Positions 23,088 through 57,034 of a DNA stretch of 64,000 nt are shown here, in pieces. Numbering within the stretch: position 1 is the stretch's first letter; each line of letters opens with the position of its first letter. The notes beneath the pieces were generated by a model. That model saw only the letters and a program-made list of their open reading frames with translations, did no database searches and was not told the origin of the DNA. A program made the translations under genes and the position numbers. This DNA is from Gemmatimonadaceae bacterium (GTDB lineage Bacteria > Gemmatimonadota > Gemmatimonadetes > Gemmatimonadales > Gemmatimonadaceae). The stretch spans positions 1,024,001-1,088,000 of the forward strand of contig JBJMOW010000004.1 in assembly GCA_045803545.1 (NCBI GenBank). The letters run 5' to 3'.

Positions 23088-24011
23088 CTATTCGTCCTCC
23101 TCCGGCGACGCAACCACCAGCCGCAGCGCGTCTCGATCGATACGGTATTCGAGAGGTGTCTTCATGCGCTTAAGCTCTCCGTCCAGCCCGACCGTCGTTT
23201 GTGGCCGGTTCAAATCGATCTGGCATTTGTCGACCAGAAAATTCTCGAACTCCGGTAGCTTCGCCGCCTCCTTCGTTCCGCGGGCAAGCGCAGCCATTCC
23301 CAGCGTGAACAGCCTGGCCTTCTTGCGGCCGCGAATAATCATCACGTGCAAGCCGCGTCTGCCATTTGCGACTCGATTTCCGAAGGTGGGCATTTTGAGC
23401 TCGCGCTCGCCAACGCCAATGAATACGAGAGATGTGCGAAACGTTCTCGCTTTGCCTTCAACCTCGAATGTGACGCTGAATGTGCGGAGGTCTTTGAGCG
23501 TCATCACACCGGCGAAAACGCTGGCAATCGTATATCCAAACCGCTTCTCGAGCCTTTCTCGATCGCGAACGAACGTCACATAGGCGCCAATGGAGCTGGT
23601 GTTGAGGAAAACACAGTCGTTGACGTAGCCAATGTCGGCTCCGACGACTTCGCCGGCACCGGCGGCGATTGCTGCCTTACCGAGGTCGGTCGGAATGTTG
23701 TGATCCTTGGCGAAGTGATTGAGGGTTCCGCCCGGCAGGATGGCGAGTTGAGTTTCACTCCTGGCGACCAGCGACGCCGCGGTAGCGATGGTTCCGTCAC
23801 CCCCGGCAACCAGGATGCGTTCGATGCCGCCGGCGATCGCTGTCTTGAGCTTTGATTCCATGTCGCCGGGCTCGACGACCTCTAAATCGTAGCCGACTGT
23901 CTCCAGCGCCTCACGCGCCTTATCCGCGTTGCCGCACTTGGCGTTGAGGAAAGCCTTTAGAGCGCGAGGCGGGCGGCGAGAGGCGGGAGGCGGTGTAGTG
24001 GATAGAGACAC
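23088..24011 (-). CDS. Diacylglycerol kinase family lipid kinase
   Basis: AGGDGT, LPGGTLNHFA and DGE motifs. GTG 24011 is chosen because the longer ORF crosses a terminator. Confidence 0.82.
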   Translation of the reverse strand: MSLSTTPPPASRRPPRALKAFLNAKCGNADKAREALETVGYDLEVVEPGDMESKLKTAIAGGIERILVAGGDGTIATAASLVARSETQLAILPGGTLNHFAKDHNIPTDLGKAAIAAGAGEVVGADIGYVNDCVFLNTSSIGAYVTFVRDRERLEKRFGYTIASVFAGVMTLKDLRTFSVTFEVEGKARTFRTSLVFIGVGERELKMPTFGNRVANGRRGLHVMIIRGRKKARLFTLGMAALARGTKEAAKLPEFENFLVDKCQIDLNRPQTTVGLDGELKRMKTPLEYRIDRDALRLVVASPEEDE

Positions 24012-24026
24012 GAGAGATGCTCCATA

Positions 24027-24060
24027 CAAGAAAGACGCCGACCCAATTTGAGTCGGCGTC
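24027..24060 (-). terminator. Intrinsic terminator after the sigma factor gene
   Basis: Minus strand gacgccgac-tcaaattgg-gtcggcgtc-tttcttg. Confidence 0.75.
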
Positions 24061-24114
24061 ATCTTACTGCTGTTTCGCTTTGCGCCTCTCGCCTCCCGCC
24101 TCCCTCCTACCGCT

Positions 24115-28452: not shown

Positions 28453-29469
28453 ATGAGCCACGAAATCGTCGATATCACCATCATCGGCGGCGGTCCAACC
28501 GGGCTGTTCGCCGCTTTTTATGCCGGGATGCGGGGAGCGACGTCGCAAATCGTCGACGCGCTCCCACAGCTCGGCGGACAGCTGGCCGCGCTGTACCCGG
28601 AGAAGTACATCTTCGACGTCGGCGGATTCTCCAAGATTCTCGCCAAGGATCTGGTCAACACGCTGGTCGAGCAGGCGGCGCAATTCCGGTTCAAGTCGCA
28701 CCTCAACCAGAACGTCGTGGCGCTCGAGCAGAATGGGGATCACTTCTTCCTTGTTACTGAGACGGACCGTTTTCCGACCCGCGCCATTGTCATAGCGGCG
28801 GGAATCGGCGCGTTTTCTCCACGCCGGCTTCCGCAGCAGTGCGCGGAGCCCTGGTACGGTCGCGGGATTTTCGATCGCGTGGCCAATCCGGAGGAATTCC
28901 GCGGCCAGCGCATCGTCATCATCGGCGGCGGTGACTCAGCCTTCGATTGGGCGCAGCAGCTGCGAGATCGCGCGCGGGCGGTGACGCTCGTCCACCGGAG
29001 TGACAAGTATCGCGCGCACGGCGCGACAATCGCCGATGTGGTGGCCGCGGCCGGTGAAGGCCGTACGACCTTGCTGCCATTTCACGAGCTGCACGATGTA
29101 CTGTCGGAGGATGACCGACTTACCGGGGTGACACTGCGCGATGTGAAAGCGAAGACGACCCGCGATATCGAGGCGGACGCCATTCTGCCGATGCTGGGAT
29201 TTCACAGCGACATCGGTGCGCTCGGAGAGTGGGGACTGAACTGCGAGAACGACGAGATCATCGTCAACAGCATGATGGAGACAGGGCGGGCAGGTATTTA
29301 CGCCGCTGGAGACATCACCACCTATCCGGGCAAGCTAAAGCTGATCGCAACCGGATTCGGGGAAGCGGCGACGGCGGTCAATCAGGCCGTGCACTGGATC
29401 TACCCGGACAAGAAAGTGAATCCCGGGCACAGCTCCAACATGGCGATTTTCGGCCAGAAGGACGATTAG
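28453..29469 (+). CDS. Thioredoxin-reductase-type ferredoxin-NADP(+) reductase
   Basis: GGGPTG, GGQLAALYPEK, GGGDSA and GIYAAGD motifs, no CxxC, C-terminal PGHSS. Confidence 0.85.
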   Translation: MSHEIVDITIIGGGPTGLFAAFYAGMRGATSQIVDALPQLGGQLAALYPEKYIFDVGGFSKILAKDLVNTLVEQAAQFRFKSHLNQNVVALEQNGDHFFLVTETDRFPTRAIVIAAGIGAFSPRRLPQQCAEPWYGRGIFDRVANPEEFRGQRIVIIGGGDSAFDWAQQLRDRARAVTLVHRSDKYRAHGATIADVVAAAGEGRTTLLPFHELHDVLSEDDRLTGVTLRDVKAKTTRDIEADAILPMLGFHSDIGALGEWGLNCENDEIIVNSMMETGRAGIYAAGDITTYPGKLKLIATGFGEAATAVNQAVHWIYPDKKVNPGHSSNMAIFGQKDD

Positions 29470-30023
29470 TTCGGCTCGTCGAGTCGGGTGCGGCTCAGGG
29501 CTGGTGCCGGAGTGGGCGAACCCGGAATAGCTGTGAGGGCATGTTCGTCGCGACCGGCGCGAATGCAAAGGATCCAGGTCAACATCGCAGTGCCTAAAGT
29601 GACGGCGAGGTCCGCGAGGTTGAACGTCCAGAAGCGGTGCGATTGGATGCCGATATCGATGAAGTCCACGACACCGCGCGGGGACTTGATGCGGTCGAGC
29701 AGATTCCCGACCGCGCCGCCGCAGATGAGCGCAATCGAGGCGATCTGCAGCCGATCATCCCGCGGAGTTTGCCGGTACATATAAAGAAGCACGAGCAGCG
29801 TTCCGATGGAGAGCAGCACGAACCACCAGCGGGACGATGGTCCGAGCGAGAAGCTCATCGCGCCCTCGGGGTTATAAGCGAGGGTGAAACGGAGGATATC
29901 GTCAACGATGTTGTGCGGTACGTACGCGGGCGACAGCCGGTTCACCGCGAGCTTTTTGCTGACGAGGTCGACCAGAACCGTCATCAGAAAAATCGTCCAG
30001 AATTTATTGGCTCTTTGCGGCAT
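29466..30023 (-). CDS. lspA: Lipoprotein signal peptidase II
   Basis: YNPEGAMS, GGAVGNLLDR, VVDFI and FNLAD motifs. Confidence 0.9.
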   Translation of the reverse strand: MPQRANKFWTIFLMTVLVDLVSKKLAVNRLSPAYVPHNIVDDILRFTLAYNPEGAMSFSLGPSSRWWFVLLSIGTLLVLLYMYRQTPRDDRLQIASIALICGGAVGNLLDRIKSPRGVVDFIDIGIQSHRFWTFNLADLAVTLGTAMLTWILCIRAGRDEHALTAIPGSPTPAPALSRTRLDEPN

Positions 30024-30133
30024 GAATCTCGTTAGGGTGTTCTGGCCTTACGGTTTTGAGCTTAATCGCGTTTCGCTGGAACAGGGACGACCAGCTGAAT
30101 CCGAAGTATTAGACAGCGCATTATAGATTCTAG

Positions 30134-30159
30134 CGGGAAGCGGGAAGCGGGAAGCGGGA
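30134..30159 (+). repeat. (CGGGAAG)n heptamer array; canonical G-quadruplex pattern
   Basis: GGG tracts at 30135, 30142, 30149 and 30156 with 4-nt loops. Confidence 0.85.
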
Positions 30160-30208: not shown

Positions 30209-31642
30209 CTGACTAAGAAACCAACGCATTACCACCTGATCGGGATCGCTGGTACGGCGATGGCGTCGCTGGCGGGGCTGCTGAAAGCCGCCGGACATAA
30301 AGTCACCGGGTCCGACGAGAACGTTTACCCGCCCATGTCAACCAACCTGGAGCGCATGGGGATCACCTACGCTCAGGGTTACAAGCCGGAGAACCTTTCA
30401 CCGGCGCCTGACATCGTCGTGGTCGGCAATGTCATCTCGCGCGGGAATCCGGAGCTGGAAGAGGTGCTGATCCGGAAGCTGCGTTACACGTCAGCGGCTG
30501 CCACGATCAAAGAAGAATTCATATGGGGTCATCACTGCCTGGCGGTGGCGGGGACGCATGGCAAAACGACCACGACTTCGTTGCTGGCGTGGCTGCTGGA
30601 GTCGGCCGGACTCAACCCGAGCTTTCTGATTGGCGGTGTAGCTGAGAACTTCGGCACATCCTATCGACTCACGGGCTCGCGTTACTTCGTTATTGAAGCC
30701 GACGAGTACGACACGGCGTACTTCGACAAGGGTCCGAAGATGTGGCACTACCTGCCGGACACCGCGATCGTCAACAACATCGAATACGATCACGCCGACA
30801 TCTATCGCGACGAGGAGGCGTACAAGTTCGCCTTCGCGCGCTTCATCAATCTCGTTCCGAAGAACGGCGTGGTGATCGCTGGCTGGGACTCGCCAATCGT
30901 GCGAGAGCTTGCTCCCAAATCGCCGGCGCCTGTGCAGTCTTTTGCGTATGGGGATGACACAGTGACGTCGCAGGATGCGCAAGCACATTGGCACGCGCGC
31001 GATGTCGAGTTCGACGAGAGCGGCACCCGGTTCCGCGCTTTCAAGTCGACGGAAGAGTGGGGAAGAGTCGAGACACCTCTCGCGGGCGCGTTCAACGTGC
31101 GCAACGCGCTGGCAGTCATAGCGGCCGCGGAATCAGTGAAAGCCGATCGCGATGGTGTGCGTCAGGGATTCAAGACCTTCGCGAGTGTGAAGCGACGGAT
31201 GGAAGTCCGTGGTGAAGTTCGCGGCGTGACAGTGATCGACGATTTCGCGCATCATCCGACAGCGATCCGGGAGACGATCGACGCGGTGCGACAGAAGTAC
31301 AAAGGGCGGCGAATCGTTGCCATCTACGAGCCGAGGAGCTACACCGCGCAGCGGCGGGAATTTCAGGACGACTATGCGCGCGCCTTCGCTGGTGCGGAGG
31401 AGATTATTTTCGCGTCGTTGTATCGGCCGGATCGGTACACGAAAGAGACTGCGCTGGATCTCGGAAAGCTCGTTCGGGATCTGAGCACTAACGGCAAAAC
31501 CGCAAAAGAGCTCAAGGATGCTGACACGATCGTGCGTGATCTTGCTCCGCGCGCACGTGAGCGTGATGTGGTGTTGATCATGTCGAATGGCGGATTTGGC
31601 GGGATCCACCAGAAACTTCTCGACGCGCTCGGAGCTCGCTGA
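30209..31642 (+). CDS. mpl: Murein peptide ligase (UDP-MurNAc:L-Ala-gamma-D-Glu-mDAP ligase), probable CTG start
   Basis: HLIGIAGTAM, GSDENVYPPMS, AGTHGKTTT, EADEYDTAYFDK, DDFAHHPTAI and MSNGGFGGIH motifs. GAGAGGA RBS 8 nt before CTG 30209. Confidence 0.9.
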   Translation: MTKKPTHYHLIGIAGTAMASLAGLLKAAGHKVTGSDENVYPPMSTNLERMGITYAQGYKPENLSPAPDIVVVGNVISRGNPELEEVLIRKLRYTSAAATIKEEFIWGHHCLAVAGTHGKTTTTSLLAWLLESAGLNPSFLIGGVAENFGTSYRLTGSRYFVIEADEYDTAYFDKGPKMWHYLPDTAIVNNIEYDHADIYRDEEAYKFAFARFINLVPKNGVVIAGWDSPIVRELAPKSPAPVQSFAYGDDTVTSQDAQAHWHARDVEFDESGTRFRAFKSTEEWGRVETPLAGAFNVRNALAVIAAAESVKADRDGVRQGFKTFASVKRRMEVRGEVRGVTVIDDFAHHPTAIRETIDAVRQKYKGRRIVAIYEPRSYTAQRREFQDDYARAFAGAEEIIFASLYRPDRYTKETALDLGKLVRDLSTNGKTAKELKDADTIVRDLAPRARERDVVLIMSNGGFGGIHQKLLDALGAR

Positions 31643-31645
31643 CGG

Positions 31646-32236
31646 CTACTCTGGGCTGATCTTTCGGCGCGGCACAATCGGGGTAAGGCGGGCTGATCCC
31701 GTTTTTGCGACGATTCCGAGTTTAAGAATGGTGTTCCAGTTCCGGCCGGTTCCCCGTCCCAGTCTCTTCTCGAGAACCGAGTGGGTGAGCTTCGATCGGC
31801 CCTGGCCGTCCGGGAAATAAATGTAGGCGTGCTTGCCCTTGGCGCGTACGACTTCGCGGCCGCGGATGTCGCCTTGCAGCGCGACGATGTCGGCCACGTC
31901 CGGCTCGCTCTTCAGGAACATCACTACGAGATGCCCCGAATCCTTCTCGGCTTCTTTGCGGAAAGGATTCTGGCGGATGATGGCCTTCCACTCATCCGGC
32001 GTCCGCACGATGAAATCGGCTTCGAGCGACAACCGATCGAGGGCTTCGCTCTCGAGAAAACGCTCGAGCTCGGAGCCAGTTCTAACCTTGCTCTCGAAGA
32101 CGAGGTTACCGCTCTGAAGCAGCGACCGGACGTTCTCCATGCCGAGCGCCGCCAGGAAATTTCGAAGATCGGTCATCCCGACCTGACGATGGCCGCCGAC
32201 GTTGATGCCGCGGACGAGAGCGATATGGGTTGTCAG
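31646..32236 (-). CDS. DUF1697 domain protein (probable CTG start at 32236)
   Basis: Signature IALVRGINVGG lies upstream of the first ATG. QSGNLVF and TGRNWNT are also present. Confidence 0.85.
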   Translation of the reverse strand: MTTHIALVRGINVGGHRQVGMTDLRNFLAALGMENVRSLLQSGNLVFESKVRTGSELERFLESEALDRLSLEADFIVRTPDEWKAIIRQNPFRKEAEKDSGHLVVMFLKSEPDVADIVALQGDIRGREVVRAKGKHAYIYFPDGQGRSKLTHSVLEKRLGRGTGRNWNTILKLGIVAKTGSARLTPIVPRRKISPE

Positions 32237-32289
32237 AACTGGCTACTGGTTTAAGAAGACAGGGGTCTGCTACTGAAAAATATCAGCCG

Positions 32290-32485
32290 GCGGGAGGCGG
32301 GAAGCGGGAAGCGGGAAGCGGGAAGCGAGAAGGAGGGCGCGAGAGGCGGGAGGCGAGAGGCGGGAGGAGGATGCATTCGCCTCGCCCTGTCTTCACCGCG
32401 CTTCGCTTCCCGCTTCCCGTTTCCCGCCCGCTTCCCGCTTCCCGCCTCCCGCTTCCCGCTTCCCGCTTCCCGCTTCCCGCTTCCC
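32290..32485. repeat. Head-to-head heptamer arrays, (GCGGGAA)n and (TTCCCGC)n, forming a long imperfect inverted repeat
   Basis: G-rich arm about 32290-32370 and C-rich arm about 32400-32485. Confidence 0.9.
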
Positions 32486-33712
32486 ACTCCTATATGGGCG
32501 CTCCCACTCGCGCAGATGATCCAGCAGGTAGTCGAGCGAGAAGACGTGCCGTGAGTTGTCGGCCTTGCGGCGGAAGATCACGCGTGACCAGCCGCGCATC
32601 CCCGTCGGGGTGTACCACTCGCCGTTCATGTGCAGCTTGTCGCCATTGATGGCGCGTATCAGTACGCGTTCGTACTGCGACCGCGGAAGCACGCGTTCGG
32701 GGAAAAGGTTGTCCCACGTGCAGAGGCGTCCGACGTCCTCGTACCCCGCCGGCCGATCGTCGAGATCCAGCAGTGATGGAGCGCGCCCTTTCATCACCGA
32801 GCCAATCAGCCTCAGGGTAAACGGGTCGGAGAAGCGGCGGATGTACGGCCAGAAGTGTTTCGTGATCCGACCGGCCATCTCGCGCAACGTCATGAAACGG
32901 CCGTCGGTCGTTGGCCATTTGTCGGTGTCAATGTCGCTGATGAACGGGTTTTCGGGATAGCAATCGAAACGGGCCAGCCATCCTTTGCGCGTCGTGTGCG
33001 GCATTGGACGGAATCCACGAATCACCGGAATGTCGGTGTCGTCAAGCGCGCTGATTTCGTAACTTGGCCACCGCATCACTTCCCGCACAATCCCGACGAT
33101 CAGGGTCGCTGTTGCAATCATGAGCGGTGCGTCGGGAGTGAAGTCGGCAGTGACCTCGATGCGATCGCCGCGCGGCCGCACCCCGATTCCCGTCGAACGC
33201 CGGTTCGCCGCGAGCAGCATCACCGGAATCGGCAGGATGTGCGCGAGCAGATAAGCCAACTGCTCGACGGTGCGCGTCGTCCCCTGCTCGTACTTCGGCA
33301 GCTCGAACGAGATGTTGTAGTGGGTGCTGAAGCCGGCGAGCTGGACGTCGGTGTCGTGTGCCTGCTCCCAGGCATCGAGCTCCTGACGCACGAACAGAAT
33401 CGCTTCCCATAGCGAGCGCCCGGCACGCGCGGCGCAGCCACGCTCGATCTCGATCACTGGCGTCGCCACTTCGATCACGCCCGTATCGAAATACACGGCA
33501 CCGCCAGTTGGCAGGTGATACGACCGTCCTTTGCGGTGCATCATCTTCTCGCGGATGATCCTGCGCGGGCTGCCGAAGAGATCCTCAGGCTTCACCTGCA
33601 CGCCGTCCTGGATCACCGCGAATTCGGCTTCCATGCCGATTGCGGCGAGCTGGATACGCTCGTGCGTGGATGATTTGTTCTCGGGACCTTTCTTTTTCTT
33701 CAGCTCGGTCAT
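32393..33712 (-). CDS. PafA/Dop (Pup-ligase)-like carboxylate-amine ligase, glutamine synthetase / gamma-glutamylcysteine ligase fold
   Basis: GMEAEF, LPTGGAVYFDTG-VIEVATP, GFSTHYN and RIEVTAD match PafA GIETEF, LRNGARLYLDVG..PEYAT, GCHENY and RLHVIVGD in order. The C-terminal tail is repeat-derived. Confidence 0.65.
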   Translation of the reverse strand: MTELKKKKGPENKSSTHERIQLAAIGMEAEFAVIQDGVQVKPEDLFGSPRRIIREKMMHRKGRSYHLPTGGAVYFDTGVIEVATPVIEIERGCAARAGRSLWEAILFVRQELDAWEQAHDTDVQLAGFSTHYNISFELPKYEQGTTRTVEQLAYLLAHILPIPVMLLAANRRSTGIGVRPRGDRIEVTADFTPDAPLMIATATLIVGIVREVMRWPSYEISALDDTDIPVIRGFRPMPHTTRKGWLARFDCYPENPFISDIDTDKWPTTDGRFMTLREMAGRITKHFWPYIRRFSDPFTLRLIGSVMKGRAPSLLDLDDRPAGYEDVGRLCTWDNLFPERVLPRSQYERVLIRAINGDKLHMNGEWYTPTGMRGWSRVIFRRKADNSRHVFSLDYLLDHLREWERPYRSGKREAGSGKREAGGGKREAGGKREAGSEAR

Positions 33713-33769
33713 TCTGCCTTCTTACCCAAAGTGCTTCACTCTTTCTGACTCTTTTTCGGGACGATTCCG

Positions 33770-34396
33770 TCAACTTTTAACGTCCCTCGGCACTGAGATG
33801 ACGTATCCCAGGTCGAGGTGTAGATGATCCTCCGCGTAGCCCGTAGGTGTTCCGTAGGGACGCGTCCAAACTCCAGGTAGCGTCTCCCGCGCGATCAGGC
33901 TGAAGCGCTCGATCGCACTTCGGTTGTCCAGGTAAGCGTCGCCAATGCGATAGATATTGGCGGCGGTTCCCCAGGCGTGCGGAGTCGCATTCTTGGAGAA
34001 CCGATGGGAAGGCGACCGATAGCCGCCATTCGCTGAAATGTGAACCAGCGTCCCAACAGCCTCCCGGAACCTCTCCAGACACACTGCAAGGAGGGTTATT
34101 GCGCACGGAACGTACCGGGGGAATGTGCGTAAAGGCGCGGCTTCCCGGACGTCGACCTGTATGAACTCCCAAAGCAGGAAGTGCGTGGAGAGCTCTACCT
34201 TCATCGCCGAGTCCCACGAGGGCACCTCGTAAAAATACCGGGGCAGCTGCCGGGAAAACCCGGTTCCGTCCTTCCATTCCTCCCCCGGTCTCAAGGCTTT
34301 ACGGTACTCAGGCGGCAGGGTCAGGCCGTCAACGACCCGAAGGGGGAAGTTGGGGGACTCATGTCTGGCCTCAGCGAAGCTCGACGGAGCGCTCAT
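33770..34396 (-). CDS. Peptidase M15-like (LAS / D-Ala-D-Ala peptidase fold) protein, no signal peptide
   Basis: HFLLWEF, LERFREAVG, GGYRSPSH, PHAWGTAANI and HLHLD motifs. Confidence 0.65.
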   Translation of the reverse strand: MSAPSSFAEARHESPNFPLRVVDGLTLPPEYRKALRPGEEWKDGTGFSRQLPRYFYEVPSWDSAMKVELSTHFLLWEFIQVDVREAAPLRTFPRYVPCAITLLAVCLERFREAVGTLVHISANGGYRSPSHRFSKNATPHAWGTAANIYRIGDAYLDNRSAIERFSLIARETLPGVWTRPYGTPTGYAEDHLHLDLGYVISVPRDVKS

Positions 34397-35295
34397 TCGT
34401 CGGGTGGGCCTTTGGTGAGGGCTTCATAGATAGCGTGTGAGATGGTGGCGATGGTCCGCGACCGACCCGATGTGTTCGGATCCCATTCCGTAAGAATCAC
34501 CAGCGCGTAAGGTTTGCGCTTGGGCAGGTAGATCACTCCGGCGTCGTGGGCGACGGTGGAAATCTCGCCGGTCTTGTGCGCAACCCGGGTGCCTTTGGGC
34601 AGGCGTGCCGGGATCCCCTGATTGAATTCCTGCCCGTGCATGATGTCCATCATCCGCCGAGACAAAGCCGGTGAGAAGGCTTTTCCCGCCGCCAGCATGA
34701 CGAGAATTCTGAGCAGCCCATTGGCGGTGACGCGGTTATTGATCCCTTTCTCGAACGCGAGCTCGTCCTCGACACCGCGTTTGAGGTCGATGCCTTGCTC
34801 GAGATGCAGCTCGTGCAGGGTCTCGTTGACCGACTGTGGTCCGATGACGCCGAGCACCAGGTTGGTGGCGAGATTGCTCGACGTCGTGATCATGTGGTAA
34901 GCGAGCTCGTCGACGCGCATCATCTTGCCGATGGCGTTGTGGACGGCTGAATTCGCGTCGCGGCCGGACTCGACGCGGAAAGGAATATCTTCGACGACGC
35001 TGAGGAACCGGTTGCGGACGTGGACGCGTGAGTGTGGCAACAAATCGCCCCGGTCAATGGCGGCGAAGACGCCGAGCAGGATCGGTACCTTGATGGTGCT
35101 GGCCGCGTGGAACCAGCGATCGTCGTGGTAATGCAGCTCGAAGCCAGTCTCGAAATCGTGCAGCGCGACGGCGATCGCCTTGGCGCCCGACTCCCTGGCG
35201 ATCTTTTCGATCTGGTTCTCGAGGGCGGACTCACTGGGCGCGGCGGCGCTCACACCGGCTGAATGTGCCGGAGATGTTGTTTCCTTGCTGGTCAT
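34393..35295 (-). CDS. Class A beta-lactamase-fold serine hydrolase, no signal peptide
   Basis: FHAASTIK (SxxK), SSN (SxN) and HKTG motifs. Confidence 0.85.
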   Translation of the reverse strand: MTSKETTSPAHSAGVSAAAPSESALENQIEKIARESGAKAIAVALHDFETGFELHYHDDRWFHAASTIKVPILLGVFAAIDRGDLLPHSRVHVRNRFLSVVEDIPFRVESGRDANSAVHNAIGKMMRVDELAYHMITTSSNLATNLVLGVIGPQSVNETLHELHLEQGIDLKRGVEDELAFEKGINNRVTANGLLRILVMLAAGKAFSPALSRRMMDIMHGQEFNQGIPARLPKGTRVAHKTGEISTVAHDAGVIYLPKRKPYALVILTEWDPNTSGRSRTIATISHAIYEALTKGPPDE

Positions 35296-35302
35296 CTACC
35301 GC

Positions 35303-36223
35303 TTATGAATACGCTACGCGCGGGTCGGCTTTGGCGTAGGCGAGATCGGTGAGGAGGTTCACCATCACAAACACAACGCTGAGAAAAAGCACCGAGCCCT
35401 GAATGGCGGGCAAGTCCCGTCGCGTGATGGCATTGACGACGTAGCGGCCAAGTCCGGGCCAGCTGAAGATCGTTTCGGTGAGAATGCTTCCCGTCAGGTA
35501 GTATCCGAAATCGAGACCGAGGACGGTGATGATCGGAATGAGTGCGTTGCGGAGTGCGTGGCGCACTATGACGGCGCGTTCCTTCAATCCTTTCGCGCGC
35601 GCGGTTCGCACAAAGTCTCCGCCGAGTACATCCAGCATCGCCGATCGGGTGACTCGCGCGAGGAACGCGATCGAGCGCGAGCCAAGCGCGAACGCAGGGA
35701 GAATCAGATACTTGATTCCGCCGTAGCCGGATGGCGGCAGCCAGCGCAGCATCACCGCGAAGATCAGAATCAGAATCAGCCCGACCCAATACACAGGGAA
35801 AGAGATTCCGAGATAGGCGATGCCGAGACCCAGTCGGTCGAACCAGCCACCTGGAGCCCGGGCACTGAGAACGCCGAGTGTAATACCGAGAATAGAAGCG
35901 AGCAGCATCGCCGATCCGGCGAGAAGCAGCGTTTTCGGGAATCGCTCGAGAATGTCGCGAATGATCGGGCGTTGTGTGATGTACGAGTTGCCCAGATTAC
36001 CGCGCACCACGCCGCCCGCGTACAGTGCGAACTGCTTGAGCCGGGGCTCGTCGAGGTGCAGATCTTTTCTCAAACGCGCGATCGTCGCCGAATCGGCGCG
36101 CTCGCCCACCATCTCGGTTACCGGATCACCCGGTGCGACATTGAGCAAAAGAAATGTCACTACCAGCACCCCGAACAGGGTCGGGATGGCGAGTAGAAGT
36201 CGGCGGACGATGAATGCGAGCAC
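35303..36223 (-). CDS. Peptide ABC transporter permease (DppB/OppB family)
   Basis: APGDP, GNLGNSY, TARAKGL...HALRNA and ETIFSWPGLG motifs. Confidence 0.9.
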   Translation of the reverse strand: MLAFIVRRLLLAIPTLFGVLVVTFLLLNVAPGDPVTEMVGERADSATIARLRKDLHLDEPRLKQFALYAGGVVRGNLGNSYITQRPIIRDILERFPKTLLLAGSAMLLASILGITLGVLSARAPGGWFDRLGLGIAYLGISFPVYWVGLILILIFAVMLRWLPPSGYGGIKYLILPAFALGSRSIAFLARVTRSAMLDVLGGDFVRTARAKGLKERAVIVRHALRNALIPIITVLGLDFGYYLTGSILTETIFSWPGLGRYVVNAITRRDLPAIQGSVLFLSVVFVMVNLLTDLAYAKADPRVAYS

Positions 36224-36226
36224 GCC

Positions 36227-37786
36227 CTACTTGCTGATCGTCACGTCAGTCCAACGCTGACCGCTGAACACTGCCGGCACGGCGAAGCCGTGAATCCAGG
36301 GCTGAATGGCGTACATATCCTTGTAGAAAAACAGATACGCCATCGGTGCGTCGGCGAATTGAAGCGAATCCGCCTGCGCGTACAATGCGTTTCGCTTTGA
36401 CTCGTCCTGCTCGCGGTGCGCCTGATCCACCAGCGCGTCGAATTTGGGATTCGAGTAGAAGGAGACGTTGCCGCCGGGCCCTTTGTTCTTGCTGTGCAAC
36501 AGCGGGAACAGGAAGTTCTCCGCGTCGGGATAATCTGCCCACCATTCCTTGACGTAGAGATCGGCGGCTCCTTTGCGCGCTGCCTCGCGCACCGACGATG
36601 CGTCGCGCTGCACGATCTTCGCGCGGATGCCGGCTTCGGCGAGATTGGCCTGAATTGCCTGCGACAGTCGTGGGGACTGGTCGGTCGTGGCCGCCCAGAG
36701 CTCGACGTCGATGCCATTGGGGTGTCCGGCGGCGGTGAGAAGCTGTTTGGCTTTGGCGACGTCGTGCCCATATGGTTTGCGATTGGCGTCGTAGCCGGGG
36801 AGAGTTGGCGGAACGACGCCGTTGGCAACGGCACCGCGGCCGGCCATGACTGCGCTCAGGATGGTGTTGACATCGATTGCGTAGTTCAGCGCCTGTCGCA
36901 CGCGAACATCGGCGAGGGGACCGCGAGTGGTGTTGATCGCGACATACCAGAAGCGAAGCGCGGGAGCGGACTGCAACAGCTTGCTCTTGTCGGGATCCGC
37001 CTGCCACGACTTCCCTGTCTCATCCGGTACGGTCAACACATCGACGTTGCCGGCCTCGAACTCGGCGGTGGCTGTGCTCATCTCGGGAATGATGCGCGCC
37101 ATCAGCGAGTCGCTCTTGGGCAGTCCGTCGAAGTAGTTCGGATTCTTTGCAAACTTGAGGTAATCGTCGTGTTTCCATTCGACGAACTTCCACGGGCCGG
37201 TCCCAATTGGCTTCTGGCCGAAGTCGCTGCCGGCGTTGTCAGGCACGATGGAGTTTACCGGCATTGCCAGCATCTTCGGGAAGATCGAGTAGGGCTCCTT
37301 GAGCGTGATCACGACAGTCGTGTCATTTGGCGCGGCGAGGCCGGTTATCGATGATCCCTTCCCGCCGGCGAAATCCTCAGCGCCTTTGATCGGAAATAGT
37401 GGCCAACCACGCCCGCCCTTCGTCTTAGGGTCGAGGACGCGCTGGAAAGTCGAAACCACATTTTTCGCGGTGAAGTTCGAGCCGTCATGGAACTTGACGC
37501 CGCTGTGCAGGTGAAACGTGTAAGTGAGGCCGTCAGGTGTCACTTCCCAGGACTTGGCGAGTCCGGGGACGACTTTGGCGTCAGCGGTAAATCGAGTGAG
37601 TCCGTCGAAGATGTACGCCACCGCGCGACCGGTCGGCACGTCCGTCGAGAGTGCCGGGTCCATCGATCGCGGGTCGTAAGTATCGCGCGAATCGATCAGT
37701 GTTTTGCGTTGAGGAGCTGATGATTCACCACCACCGCCACCACAGCTGAGAAGTGCGGGTATTACGAAGAGGATTAGTCGCCGCAT
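36227..37786 (-). CDS. Peptide ABC transporter substrate-binding lipoprotein (family 5, DppA-like)
   Basis: Lipobox MRRLILFVIPALLS-C, PGLAKSWE, YTFHL..GVKFHDG, IGTGPW and VRQALNYAID motifs. Confidence 0.9.
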   Translation of the reverse strand: MRRLILFVIPALLSCGGGGGESSAPQRKTLIDSRDTYDPRSMDPALSTDVPTGRAVAYIFDGLTRFTADAKVVPGLAKSWEVTPDGLTYTFHLHSGVKFHDGSNFTAKNVVSTFQRVLDPKTKGGRGWPLFPIKGAEDFAGGKGSSITGLAAPNDTTVVITLKEPYSIFPKMLAMPVNSIVPDNAGSDFGQKPIGTGPWKFVEWKHDDYLKFAKNPNYFDGLPKSDSLMARIIPEMSTATAEFEAGNVDVLTVPDETGKSWQADPDKSKLLQSAPALRFWYVAINTTRGPLADVRVRQALNYAIDVNTILSAVMAGRGAVANGVVPPTLPGYDANRKPYGHDVAKAKQLLTAAGHPNGIDVELWAATTDQSPRLSQAIQANLAEAGIRAKIVQRDASSVREAARKGAADLYVKEWWADYPDAENFLFPLLHSKNKGPGGNVSFYSNPKFDALVDQAHREQDESKRNALYAQADSLQFADAPMAYLFFYKDMYAIQPWIHGFAVPAVFSGQRWTDVTISK

Positions 37787-37855: not shown

Positions 37856-38128
37856 GTGAGCGCAGAATACTATTATCGCCGCCAACTCGGCGCCAAGGAT
37901 CTGTTGCCGGCAGTTGGTCTCGGCGTCGCCACGGGTTTGGCCGCGTTCTACATTGTGCAACTCTTAATCCAGCGTACGCCTCTGGTGCCTCAAGGCGATT
38001 TGCCACGGACGCCGACGGCGCCGCCACGGAGAATGCTGGGCGATCGGACCGAGCCGGAGACAGAGACCCACTACGCGCGAGAGCTGCCGGCGGGTCAACC
38101 ACCGGGCGCGCGCGCACTGAAAGGGTGA
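37856..38128 (+). CDS. Small single-TM protein
   Basis: 90 aa with one TM segment. Its stop overlaps the next GTG (GTGA). Confidence 0.55.
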   Translation: MSAEYYYRRQLGAKDLLPAVGLGVATGLAAFYIVQLLIQRTPLVPQGDLPRTPTAPPRRMLGDRTEPETETHYARELPAGQPPGARALKG

Positions 38129-56207: not shown

Positions 56208-57034
56208 TCGGGGCGCGGGAGGCGGGAGGCGGGAAGCGGGAAGCGGAAGACGGTCGCGGAAGGTGGGGGTGCTGCCACGCCGGTGTCCATTCTCAGTGTC
56301 GGTGGCGGCGGGAAATGAGATACGGTTAGACTCACCGGGCCGCCGGCTGAAATCGTCTGGCCCGCGGCCGGAAGCTGGCGGATGACAGTGTTCTCCGGCT
56401 GCAGCGAGCTGGTGTCGCGTGAGACTCCAGCGATGCGAAGACCGATTTGCTCGACCATCGATCGAGCCTCACCGACGCTACGGCCGTACAGGTCGGGCAT
56501 CTGTACAGTCGCTGGTCCTTTGCTGATTACGATGTCGACGCTGCCTGGCAACTGTACCTGGGTCCCCGCCGCAGGCGAGCTCGAGATGACGAGTCCGCGC
56601 GGAGCGTCTGCCAGCTGCTCGGTAACGTTGCCCATGGTGAGTCCGGTGTTCTCGATCGCGATGCGCGCCTGTTGCTGCGACATGTTGGTCGTCACCGGAA
56701 CTTCGGCCGTCTTCTGGCCGGCGCTTAGAGCGAGCACGACCGTCGTCCCGCGTTTTTGCCTGCTTCCTGCCGGCGGATCCTCCTGAATCACGACGTTCGC
56801 AGGGATCGTCTTGTGAAAGCGAGACTCGCCCTGCTGCGACGGGAACCCCGCCTTCTGCAGAATCGCTGATGCATCTTCGAAGGTCTTGCCGACTACATTC
56901 GGTAGAATTCCGTCGTCGGGAAGCACCTGCGCCGGAAATGCAAACAGAAAAACCGCGGCGTAGGAGATGAGAAATCCACCGGCCGCGGCAATCAGGTATG
57001 GCAACGCGCGACGGGGCGCCGAGCGCCAGTTCAT
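56204..57034 (-). CDS. PASTA domain protein (three PASTA repeats, no kinase)
   Basis: TM segment followed by LPNVVGK, VPVTTNM and MPDLYGR repeats. Confidence 0.85.
   Translation of the reverse strand: MNWRSAPRRALPYLIAAAGGFLISYAAVFLFAFPAQVLPDDGILPNVVGKTFEDASAILQKAGFPSQQGESRFHKTIPANVVIQEDPPAGSRQKRGTTVVLALSAGQKTAEVPVTTNMSQQQARIAIENTGLTMGNVTEQLADAPRGLVISSSPAAGTQVQLPGSVDIVISKGPATVQMPDLYGRSVGEARSMVEQIGLRIAGVSRDTSSLQPENTVIRQLPAAGQTISAGGPVSLTVSHFPPPPTLRMDTGVAAPPPSATVFRFPLPASRLPRPE

Follow-up and report, generated by a model that had tools for sequence, protein, structure and literature searches.

A conserved three-gene unit encoding two peptidoglycan-type peptidase folds and an unnamed protein of Dop/PafA architecture, linked to mpl in Gemmatimonadota

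Cytoplasmic recycling of peptidoglycan stem peptides is known to involve LdcA with Mpl, MpaA and YkfC (PMC10622912, PMC9928106, PMC13046382), and the substrate of Mpl is reported to be the tripeptide made by LdcA (PMC10622912, PMC13046382). Among D-peptide enzymes, the cyanobacterial PBP-A, a relative of class A beta-lactamases, is described as a DD-carboxy/endopeptidase that prefers stems carrying D-iGln and has been assayed on peptides and in the periplasm of E. coli (PMC11189452). Among the enzymes with the fold of glutamine synthetase and gamma-glutamylcysteine synthetase (GS/GCS), the architecture of Dop and PafA has so far been described only for Pup tagging. Three adjacent genes combine these elements in a stretch of 64,000 nt from contig JBJMOW010000004.1 of a Gemmatimonadaceae bacterium (hereafter the window; all coordinates are window positions): they encode a PBP-A-like serine hydrolase, a protein with the fold of M15 zinc peptidases and an unnamed protein of Dop/PafA architecture, and are referred to below as the triad. 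The genome to which the window belongs (G000) is 93% complete, and rpoB was unmatched in it at E <= 1e-100; its assembly thus has gaps, and absences from it are weak evidence.

All three genes are encoded on the minus strand, namely a serine hydrolase of class A beta-lactamase fold (34393..35295; Beta-lactamase2, PF13354, 163 bits), a 208-aa M15A/LAS-fold zinc-peptidase-like protein (33770..34396, assigned by structure model) and a 439-aa carboxylate-amine ligase superfamily protein (32393..33712, also assigned by structure model), hereafter the ligase-fold protein. Surveys for the latter in 301 Gemmatimonadota genomes, 301 Acidobacteriota genomes and 251 genomes of the family of Ramlibacter retrieved it in 12/301, 9/301 and 3/251 genomes, respectively, and in 24/24 of these genomes, which span three phyla, the hydrolase, M15 and ligase-fold genes occur together in an identical order. 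A profile of the M15 protein found strong matches in the same 12/301 Gemmatimonadota, plus one weak partial match. In addition, 170 loci were compared, some of them redundant between collections and only those with enough flank being counted; at distant loci (<72% ligase identity) the M15 gene was present in 40/40 and the hydrolase gene in 35/35. This neighbourhood survey bears out the co-conservation of the two hydrolases with the PafA/Dop-like protein, which a preliminary description of the locus had named as a test of its proposal. The same description had proposed a system of five genes, adding those for a dppB-like permease (35303..36223, minus strand; BPD_transp_1, 145 bits) and a family-5 solute-binding protein (SBP) with a lipoprotein-type N-terminus (36227..37786, minus strand; SBP_bac_5, 341 bits). 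Indeed, the five open reading frames (ORFs) share one orientation with gaps of 3, 7, -4 and 57 bp, and the gene identities it gave were recovered, three by Pfam and the M15-like and PafA/Dop-like ones by structure models. At close loci (>=80% ligase identity) dppB is present in 74/74, but at distant loci it is present in 0/23 and the SBP gene in 0/22. The conserved unit is three genes, not five. The closest relatives of the locus are from Gemmatimonadaceae. In a tree of RpoB from 28 genomes, picked by the author from the 301 (30 searched, G000 being unmatched and G179 dropped as partial), five changes have to be assumed for the triad, and where positive lineages are scattered, their sister lineages have neither the triad nor mpl. 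No plasmid match was found, and the anti-phage hidden Markov models of PADLOC 2.0 matched 0/3 core proteins.

The ligase-fold protein has no Pfam match and no informative NCBIfam match, and its profile has no sequence match in the PDB. Its structure was modelled from a 21-row alignment of homologues (pLDDT 91.4, pTM 0.90). Among 48,161 representative chains, the model was closest to PafA 4bjr (Z 18.9, root mean square deviation (rmsd) 4.3, 335 aligned residues), followed by Dop (Z 18.4) and YbdK (Z 17.1); Foldseek also placed PafA and Dop on top (E 1.2e-9), and in a further structural comparison Dop 5lrt ranked first (Z 21.8, rmsd 3.5, 336 aligned residues). In whole-model alignments, residues 22-407 correspond to residues 2-490 of Dop (336 residues) and 10-475 of PafA (335 residues), at 11-13% identity, whereas the match to YbdK, which covers the shared cradle, stops at residue 332 (257 residues). 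The part beyond residue 332 corresponds to the C-terminal domain of the pupylation enzymes, which is unique to them according to Cui et al. (PMC8599861), and the conserved part of the protein ends near residue 407.

The ligase-core motifs given by Iyer et al., namely GhExE, acidic residues on strands 2 and 3, [HQ]x[NH] and arginines on strand 5 and in a loop (PMC2588565), are found on the modelled strands as G26/E28/E30, D76, E81, H131-x-N133, R171 and R179/R181. The conserved residues as a whole are G26-x-E28-x-E30, D76, E81, H131-x-N133, R171, R179, R181, R184, E186, D190 and, in the C-terminal part, W375 (57/81 rows, 14 gaps). Strand 6 reads E186-V-T-A-D190 (E in 77/113 rows, 31 gaps) and fits neither the [QH]x4D of PafA nor the Ex[RK]x2D of GCS: its E-x3-D shares the Glu with YbdK/GCS2 (PF04107), but the Arg/Lys of that family is a Thr (E186-x-T188). 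PF03136, the Pup ligase family, matched 0/21 alignment rows and not the window protein, and PF04107 matched 0/21 rows. The Dop-loop is defined as 40-65 residues before strand 2 (PMC8599861); only 36 residues in all separate the strand at 24-35 from that at 72-76 in the model, which leaves no room for it, and an alignment by eye places an Ala where Dop has R90. Furthermore, the triad has no Pup gene, and the enzyme is accompanied by two peptidase folds instead of proteasome genes. Taken on its model, with these motif differences and family results, the protein is built like a Pup enzyme yet lies outside that family. The direction of its reaction cannot be read from the fold, and the enzyme may ligate or hydrolyse. 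The preliminary description had called it a ligase; a GS/GCS-type ligase fold is indeed modelled, but the activity does not follow, since the closest structure is that of an amidohydrolase, Dop, with PafA behind it.

The family is large, with 437 representatives at 50% identity and 5610 matches among 7999 scored candidates, and the clusters of ten distant homologues carry 'hypothetical protein' at most. In the ESM Atlas it falls into unnamed clusters from Gemmatimonadota, Acidobacteriota and Verrucomicrobiota, with Pup_ligase appearing only at 0.87 and with a recognition value below the bar, hence a lead only. For the two extra families in the work of Iyer et al., the fusions and neighbours described are different ones (PMC2588565). 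In Acidobacteriota, the cradle of the ligase-fold proteins L199 and L202-L208 is separated from the C-terminal domain by a long insertion of poor conservation, and stand-alone paralogues (L200, L201, L207, L209) with intact catalytic-type residues are encoded in four genomes that also hold the triad; L200 lies directly after an ATP-grasp gene weakly similar to DcsG.

In the serine hydrolase, the motifs S66-x-x-K69, S139-S-N141 and K241-T-G243 (SxxK, SxN and KTG) are invariant in 24/24 rows. The protein scored 114.1 bits against the class A beta-lactamase model NF033103, below the cut-off of 200, and its top PDB sequence match is PBP-A Tll2115 (E 3.8e-31). A further segment, R173-G-V-E176-D177, is invariant in the rows, and HMMER aligned the reference Glu of the class A omega loop to a gap. 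Unlike PBP-A, the triad hydrolase has no signal-like N-terminus; about 12 conserved residues are inserted in it, and its gene is tied to two others. A paralogue (L211:7888-8787, G000:C3), 41% identical and with a signal-like N-terminus, is also encoded in the genome, with no triad around it.

The M15-fold protein has no Pfam match, no informative NCBIfam match and no PDB sequence match for its profile; Peptidase_M15_3 matched weakly in 17/35 rows (best E 0.0013). Its model (pLDDT 87.3) is closest to the zinc DD-peptidase 1lbu, with a middling Z of 8.7 (rmsd 2.8, 109 aligned residues), followed by Ply500, LysB4, Hedgehog and VanX, and 12/13 of the next rows are M15, Hedgehog or LAS-type by title. 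M15 enzymes bind zinc through H-x6-D plus a third His. The triad protein shows H140-x6-N147, D190-x-x-H193 and GGY-R127, with H140 and H193 invariant in 35 rows; it thus shares with 1LBU (M15A), Ply500/LysB4 and VanX the LAS-type fold, the first and third His ligands, the acid three residues before the last His and an SGYR-like motif, and differs from them in a second ligand that is mostly Asn, in about 50 additional, conserved residues at the N-terminus and in having no signal or wall-binding domain. The catalytic activity of the window's copy is uncertain because its second zinc ligand is Asn; Asp stands at this position in 5/6 of the Acidobacteriota loci printed.

Both hydrolase folds have peptidoglycan peptidases as their closest solved relatives, which supports an action on stem peptides. 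As for location, a crude signal test (best 9-residue hydropathy within the first 35 residues) gave maxima of 2.58 for the ligase-fold protein (21 rows), 2.01 for the M15 protein (35 rows) and 2.08 for the serine hydrolase (24 rows), compared with 3.07 for the SBP and 2.86 for the hydrolase paralogue with the signal-like N-terminus. These values are consistent with three proteins devoid of signal peptides, as the preliminary description had it, and hence cytoplasmic. A prediction of the three-protein complex scored 0.71, versus 0.77 for a control in which the ligase-fold chain was replaced, and is evidence neither way.

The best-supported functional partner of the triad is mpl, coding for the murein-tripeptide ligase (30260..31642, plus strand; TIGR01081, 425.9 bits versus a cut-off of 388.7). 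This gene is convergent to the operon with a DUF1697 gene alone in between, in agreement with the facing arrangement across one gene that had been pointed out before. In the Gemmatimonadota survey (E <= 1e-90), an mpl-like gene was found in 26/301 genomes, that is, in 12/12 triad-positive versus 14/289 triad-negative genomes, and the 7/7 triad-positive genera fall among 15/126 mpl-positive genera. The link to stem peptides proposed in the preliminary description gains support from this co-occurrence. Where mpl adjoins the triad, three layouts occur: convergent across DUF1697, divergent upstream (G167) and directly convergent (G187, also G096, unpublished). In 5/12 genomes mpl lies apart from the triad; the gene of three of these five falls into an Mpl-like clade of its own that is distinct from MurC. 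This divergent, stand-alone clade comprises L250-L254, from five Gemmatimonadaceae genomes, with 42-45% identity to the window's Mpl and scores below the TIGR01081 cut-off. In Acidobacteriota the context is another one: 5/9 triads lie co-oriented behind dapA-dapD-aminotransferase, and in the loci scanned the presence of asd, lysC or dapB upstream was confirmed; four of these five have a convergent gene for an SLT transglycosylase. The window's genome also encodes AmpG, two S66 peptidases, DapF and two Amidase_3 proteins, while MpaA and Amidase_2 were unmatched in this 93% complete assembly. Amidase_2 was likewise matched in 0/14 mpl-positive triad-negative Gemmatimonadota, and it was found in 4/11 other triad-positive Gemmatimonadota, in 9/10 triad-positive Acidobacteriota and in 3/3 triad-positive genomes of the Ramlibacter family. 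In the triad-less family f7, mpl adjoins a gene of the S66 LdcA type (G060:C1:3232782-3234637; similar in G123, G163, G198, G200, G251 and G290); Amidase_2 has a match in 0/10 genomes of this family.

On the strength of the folds, the conserved catalytic-type residues, the tight triad and the association with mpl and dap genes, we give about even chances to the triad working as a module in the cytoplasm, where it would salvage or edit peptidoglycan stem peptides ahead of Mpl. Stem peptides could enter through AmpG or the neighbouring ATP-binding cassette (ABC) importer, neither of which is tied to the triad. The PBP-A-like hydrolase could then remove D-Ala5 or cut D-Ala-mDAP cross-links (mDAP, meso-diaminopimelate) in the imported stems, and the M15-fold protein could cut a second bond, either L-Ala-D-Glu or a cross-link, beside a D-residue; given Asn as its second zinc ligand, it could instead bind the peptide. 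The Dop/PafA-fold enzyme would use ATP on the amide of a C-terminal dicarboxylic residue, and LdcA and Mpl would return the product to UDP-MurNAc. By analogy, the gamma-D-Glu-mDAP bond would be a suitable target for such an enzyme, as it resembles the isopeptide of Pup: a C-terminal Glu with a free alpha-carboxyl is linked to a diamino acid. Of the known recycling enzymes, MpaA and YkfC cleave at gamma-D-Glu. None of LdcA, Mpl, MpaA and YkfC is known to be an ATP-dependent enzyme of GS fold. Compared with the recycling by these enzymes, the triad likewise places cytoplasmic peptidases around Mpl, but LdcA coexists with it.

As to the reaction, the Dop/PafA-fold enzyme may possibly break the gamma-D-Glu-mDAP bond or deamidate the stem in the manner of Dop, a tentative assignment that fits the match to Dop, the unmatched MpaA and the preference of PBP-A for amidated stems. 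Formation of this bond in the manner of PafA, with which the lack of a Dop-loop and the dap operons as context agree, appears rather unlikely, and action on another amide still less likely. In its most specific form, a third and Pup-free branch of the PafA/Dop architecture would form the gamma-D-Glu-mDAP bond with ATP on free L-Ala-D-Glu and so make the tripeptide of Mpl outside MurE; we regard this as a rather doubtful proposal. If it were true, the enzyme together with the two D-peptidases would allow foreign or scavenged stems to be degraded and rebuilt in the chemistry of the host, and it would be a small-molecule relative showing the origin of the pupylation enzymes.

Several observations weigh against a role in stem-peptide salvage. 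The second zinc-ligand position of the M15 protein is Asn in 107/120 homologues, the window's included, and Asp in 9/120 (4/120 unmatched). An extra ligase-fold copy stands alone, without the hydrolases, in four Acidobacteriota genomes, and the C-terminal domain of Pup-enzyme type could, as modelled, be equally compatible with a protein substrate. Three of the 12 mpl-like matches in triad genomes lie below the family cut-off, which 9/12 pass, and the p-values of the association (Fisher 1e-14; genus level 8e-8) overstate it because kin are not independent. Mpl does not need the triad, given the 14 mpl-positive Gemmatimonadota without it, and at distant loci with at least 3 kb downstream mpl was found at 0/20. 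The triad and mpl stand in a single block in the window's lineage and may reflect a single event; the five dap-linked triads are in one clade and may also go back to one event. The high frequency of mpl in Acidobacteriota (177/301 overall, 8/9 triad genomes) makes it uninformative there, and one genome of this phylum (G301) holds the triad with mpl unmatched. Two other roles within recycling were also rejected: replacement of LdcA, as S66 peptidases are encoded in 12/12 triad genomes and in 32/36 genomes tested, and replacement of AmpD, as there is no anti-correlation with Amidase_2.

Outside wall recycling, the triad might serve to detoxify or catabolise peptides of D-amino acids that do not come from the wall, or soil natural products resembling beta-lactams, the hydrolases opening the compound and the ligase gamma-glutamylating the amine. 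We judge this to be unlikely, even if it agrees with the patchy spread of the triad, the variable flanks of distant loci and the class A lactamase fold of the serine hydrolase; small-molecule enzymes of the GS/GCS fold do gamma-glutamylate amines, and Iyer et al. assigned Pup-less relatives in the superfamily to small-peptide synthesis (PMC2588565). It leaves unexplained, however, the co-occurrence with mpl and the dap/SLT context; moreover, the serine hydrolase is below the class A cut-off and has no signal-like N-terminus, and no regulator or efflux gene recurs in the flanks listed, as judged by eye.

Modification of proteins without Pup, by a Glu-terminated modifier or by free glutamate on lysines, with the hydrolases reversing or maturing the product, is decidedly unlikely. 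The canonical Pup ligase PF03136 was matched in 0/27 ligase-fold-positive genomes searched (G000 and 26 others), and Pup (PF05639) had no match in G000, its control being matched, in support of the preliminary description as far as a canonical Pup system is concerned. Similarly, the 13 small ORFs ending in G[EQ] in 100 loci share no Pup-like family, as judged by eye, and both partner proteins have folds of D-peptide type. UBact (NF033388) gave no match in G000, with the control genomes silent too. The single match to the 20S proteasome family (PF00227) is on a contig other than that of the locus and is probably HslV, as E. coli matches too.

The five-gene system, in which a dedicated ABC importer would feed trimming and re-ligation, is improbable. 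In its favour, the gaps of 3 and 7 bp make read-through plausible in the window's lineage, and an ABC route for stem peptides of the MppA/Opp type is reported for E. coli (PMC10622912). Beyond the missing importer genes at distant loci, however, dppB orthologues 81-88% identical are encoded in 3/3 triad-negative genomes tested, and in 2/2 triad-positive genomes tested the orthologue is remote from the triad. The three triad-negative genomes have fnr after dppB, directly so in G051, and in the window the block hydrolase-M15-ligase-DUF1697-mpl-lspA lies between these two genes. The importer therefore belongs to the backbone, and the whole block was acquired or lost together; dppB and SBP are family backbone genes outside the conserved unit, and the claim that the importer is part of the system is rejected. 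In addition, dppC is distant: about 55 kb away, a dppC-type permease gene (L212:8794-9690, G000:C2) stands alone among envelope genes and may complete the importer.

A direct role of the triad in diaminopimelate or amino-acid metabolism, e.g. deacylation of an N-acyl-DAP intermediate, is highly improbable, since apart from the co-oriented dap context in 5/9 Acidobacteriota genomes, which would suit it, the dap-linked copies come from one clade only, no dapA or dapD match was found near the triad in six other Acidobacteriota loci, DapF is present in 5/5 genomes tested (DapE not searched) and the triad is absent from the majority of genomes in either phylum.

No publication on the ligase-fold family or on the triad was found in the literature searched, which left out most subscription papers and bioRxiv supplements. 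The enzyme family is unstudied and new, as is the combination of genes in which it occurs; the pathway served is probably of a known kind. The Dop/PafA architecture is thus shared by a large unnamed family of soil bacteria, found without the canonical Pup ligase and fixed to two peptidase folds of peptidoglycan type. If it does act on stem peptides, an ATP-dependent GS-fold step would be added to cell-wall recycling, and the origin of pupylation would gain a testable small-molecule context.

Among the remaining features of the locus, the DUF1697 gene (31646..32236, minus strand; PF08002, 89.5 bits, match beginning at profile position 21) is co-oriented with the operon; its first ATG is at 32176, and the frame is open up to a CTG at 32236. 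It is absent at distant loci and is a lineage-specific passenger. A second copy of lspA, the gene for lipoprotein signal peptidase (29466..30023, minus strand; PF01252), 45% identical to the other copy on contig C6, forms the left edge of the dppB-to-fnr block that the triad-less relatives lack, and lspA is not between dppB and fnr in G051; this second copy is missing from some triad-positive loci, e.g. L040 and L065. In Ramlibacter terrae H242 (L073; G303:C1:228723-229918), the ligase-fold gene is broken into two reading frames and the ORF of the hydrolase stops prematurely, which could be an assembly error or decay.

At its 3' end, the ligase-fold gene has two opposed arrays of a 7-bp tandem repeat (32289-32367 and 32404-32485). 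The second of these supplies the last ~30 codons of the ORF, which are not conserved protein; the encoded tail matches weakly (E 0.16) NF041631, 'KRQAASG repeat spurious translation'. The genome contains 80 arrays of at least three units of this repeat, often opposed and located between genes, and further ones lie in the window at 23962-24113, 30132-30159 and 56215-56246. In scans for promoters and terminators, the counts were at the level of chance (2 vs 1.9 and 8 vs 7.5). In two soil metatranscriptome runs, a fraction of 0.05-0.07 of the words was present, in short contigs mostly <95% alike, none of which runs across the operon. Finally, a 90-aa ORF without Pfam match is encoded between the SBP gene and omp85 (37856-38128) and is conserved at 73-91% identity in close loci.

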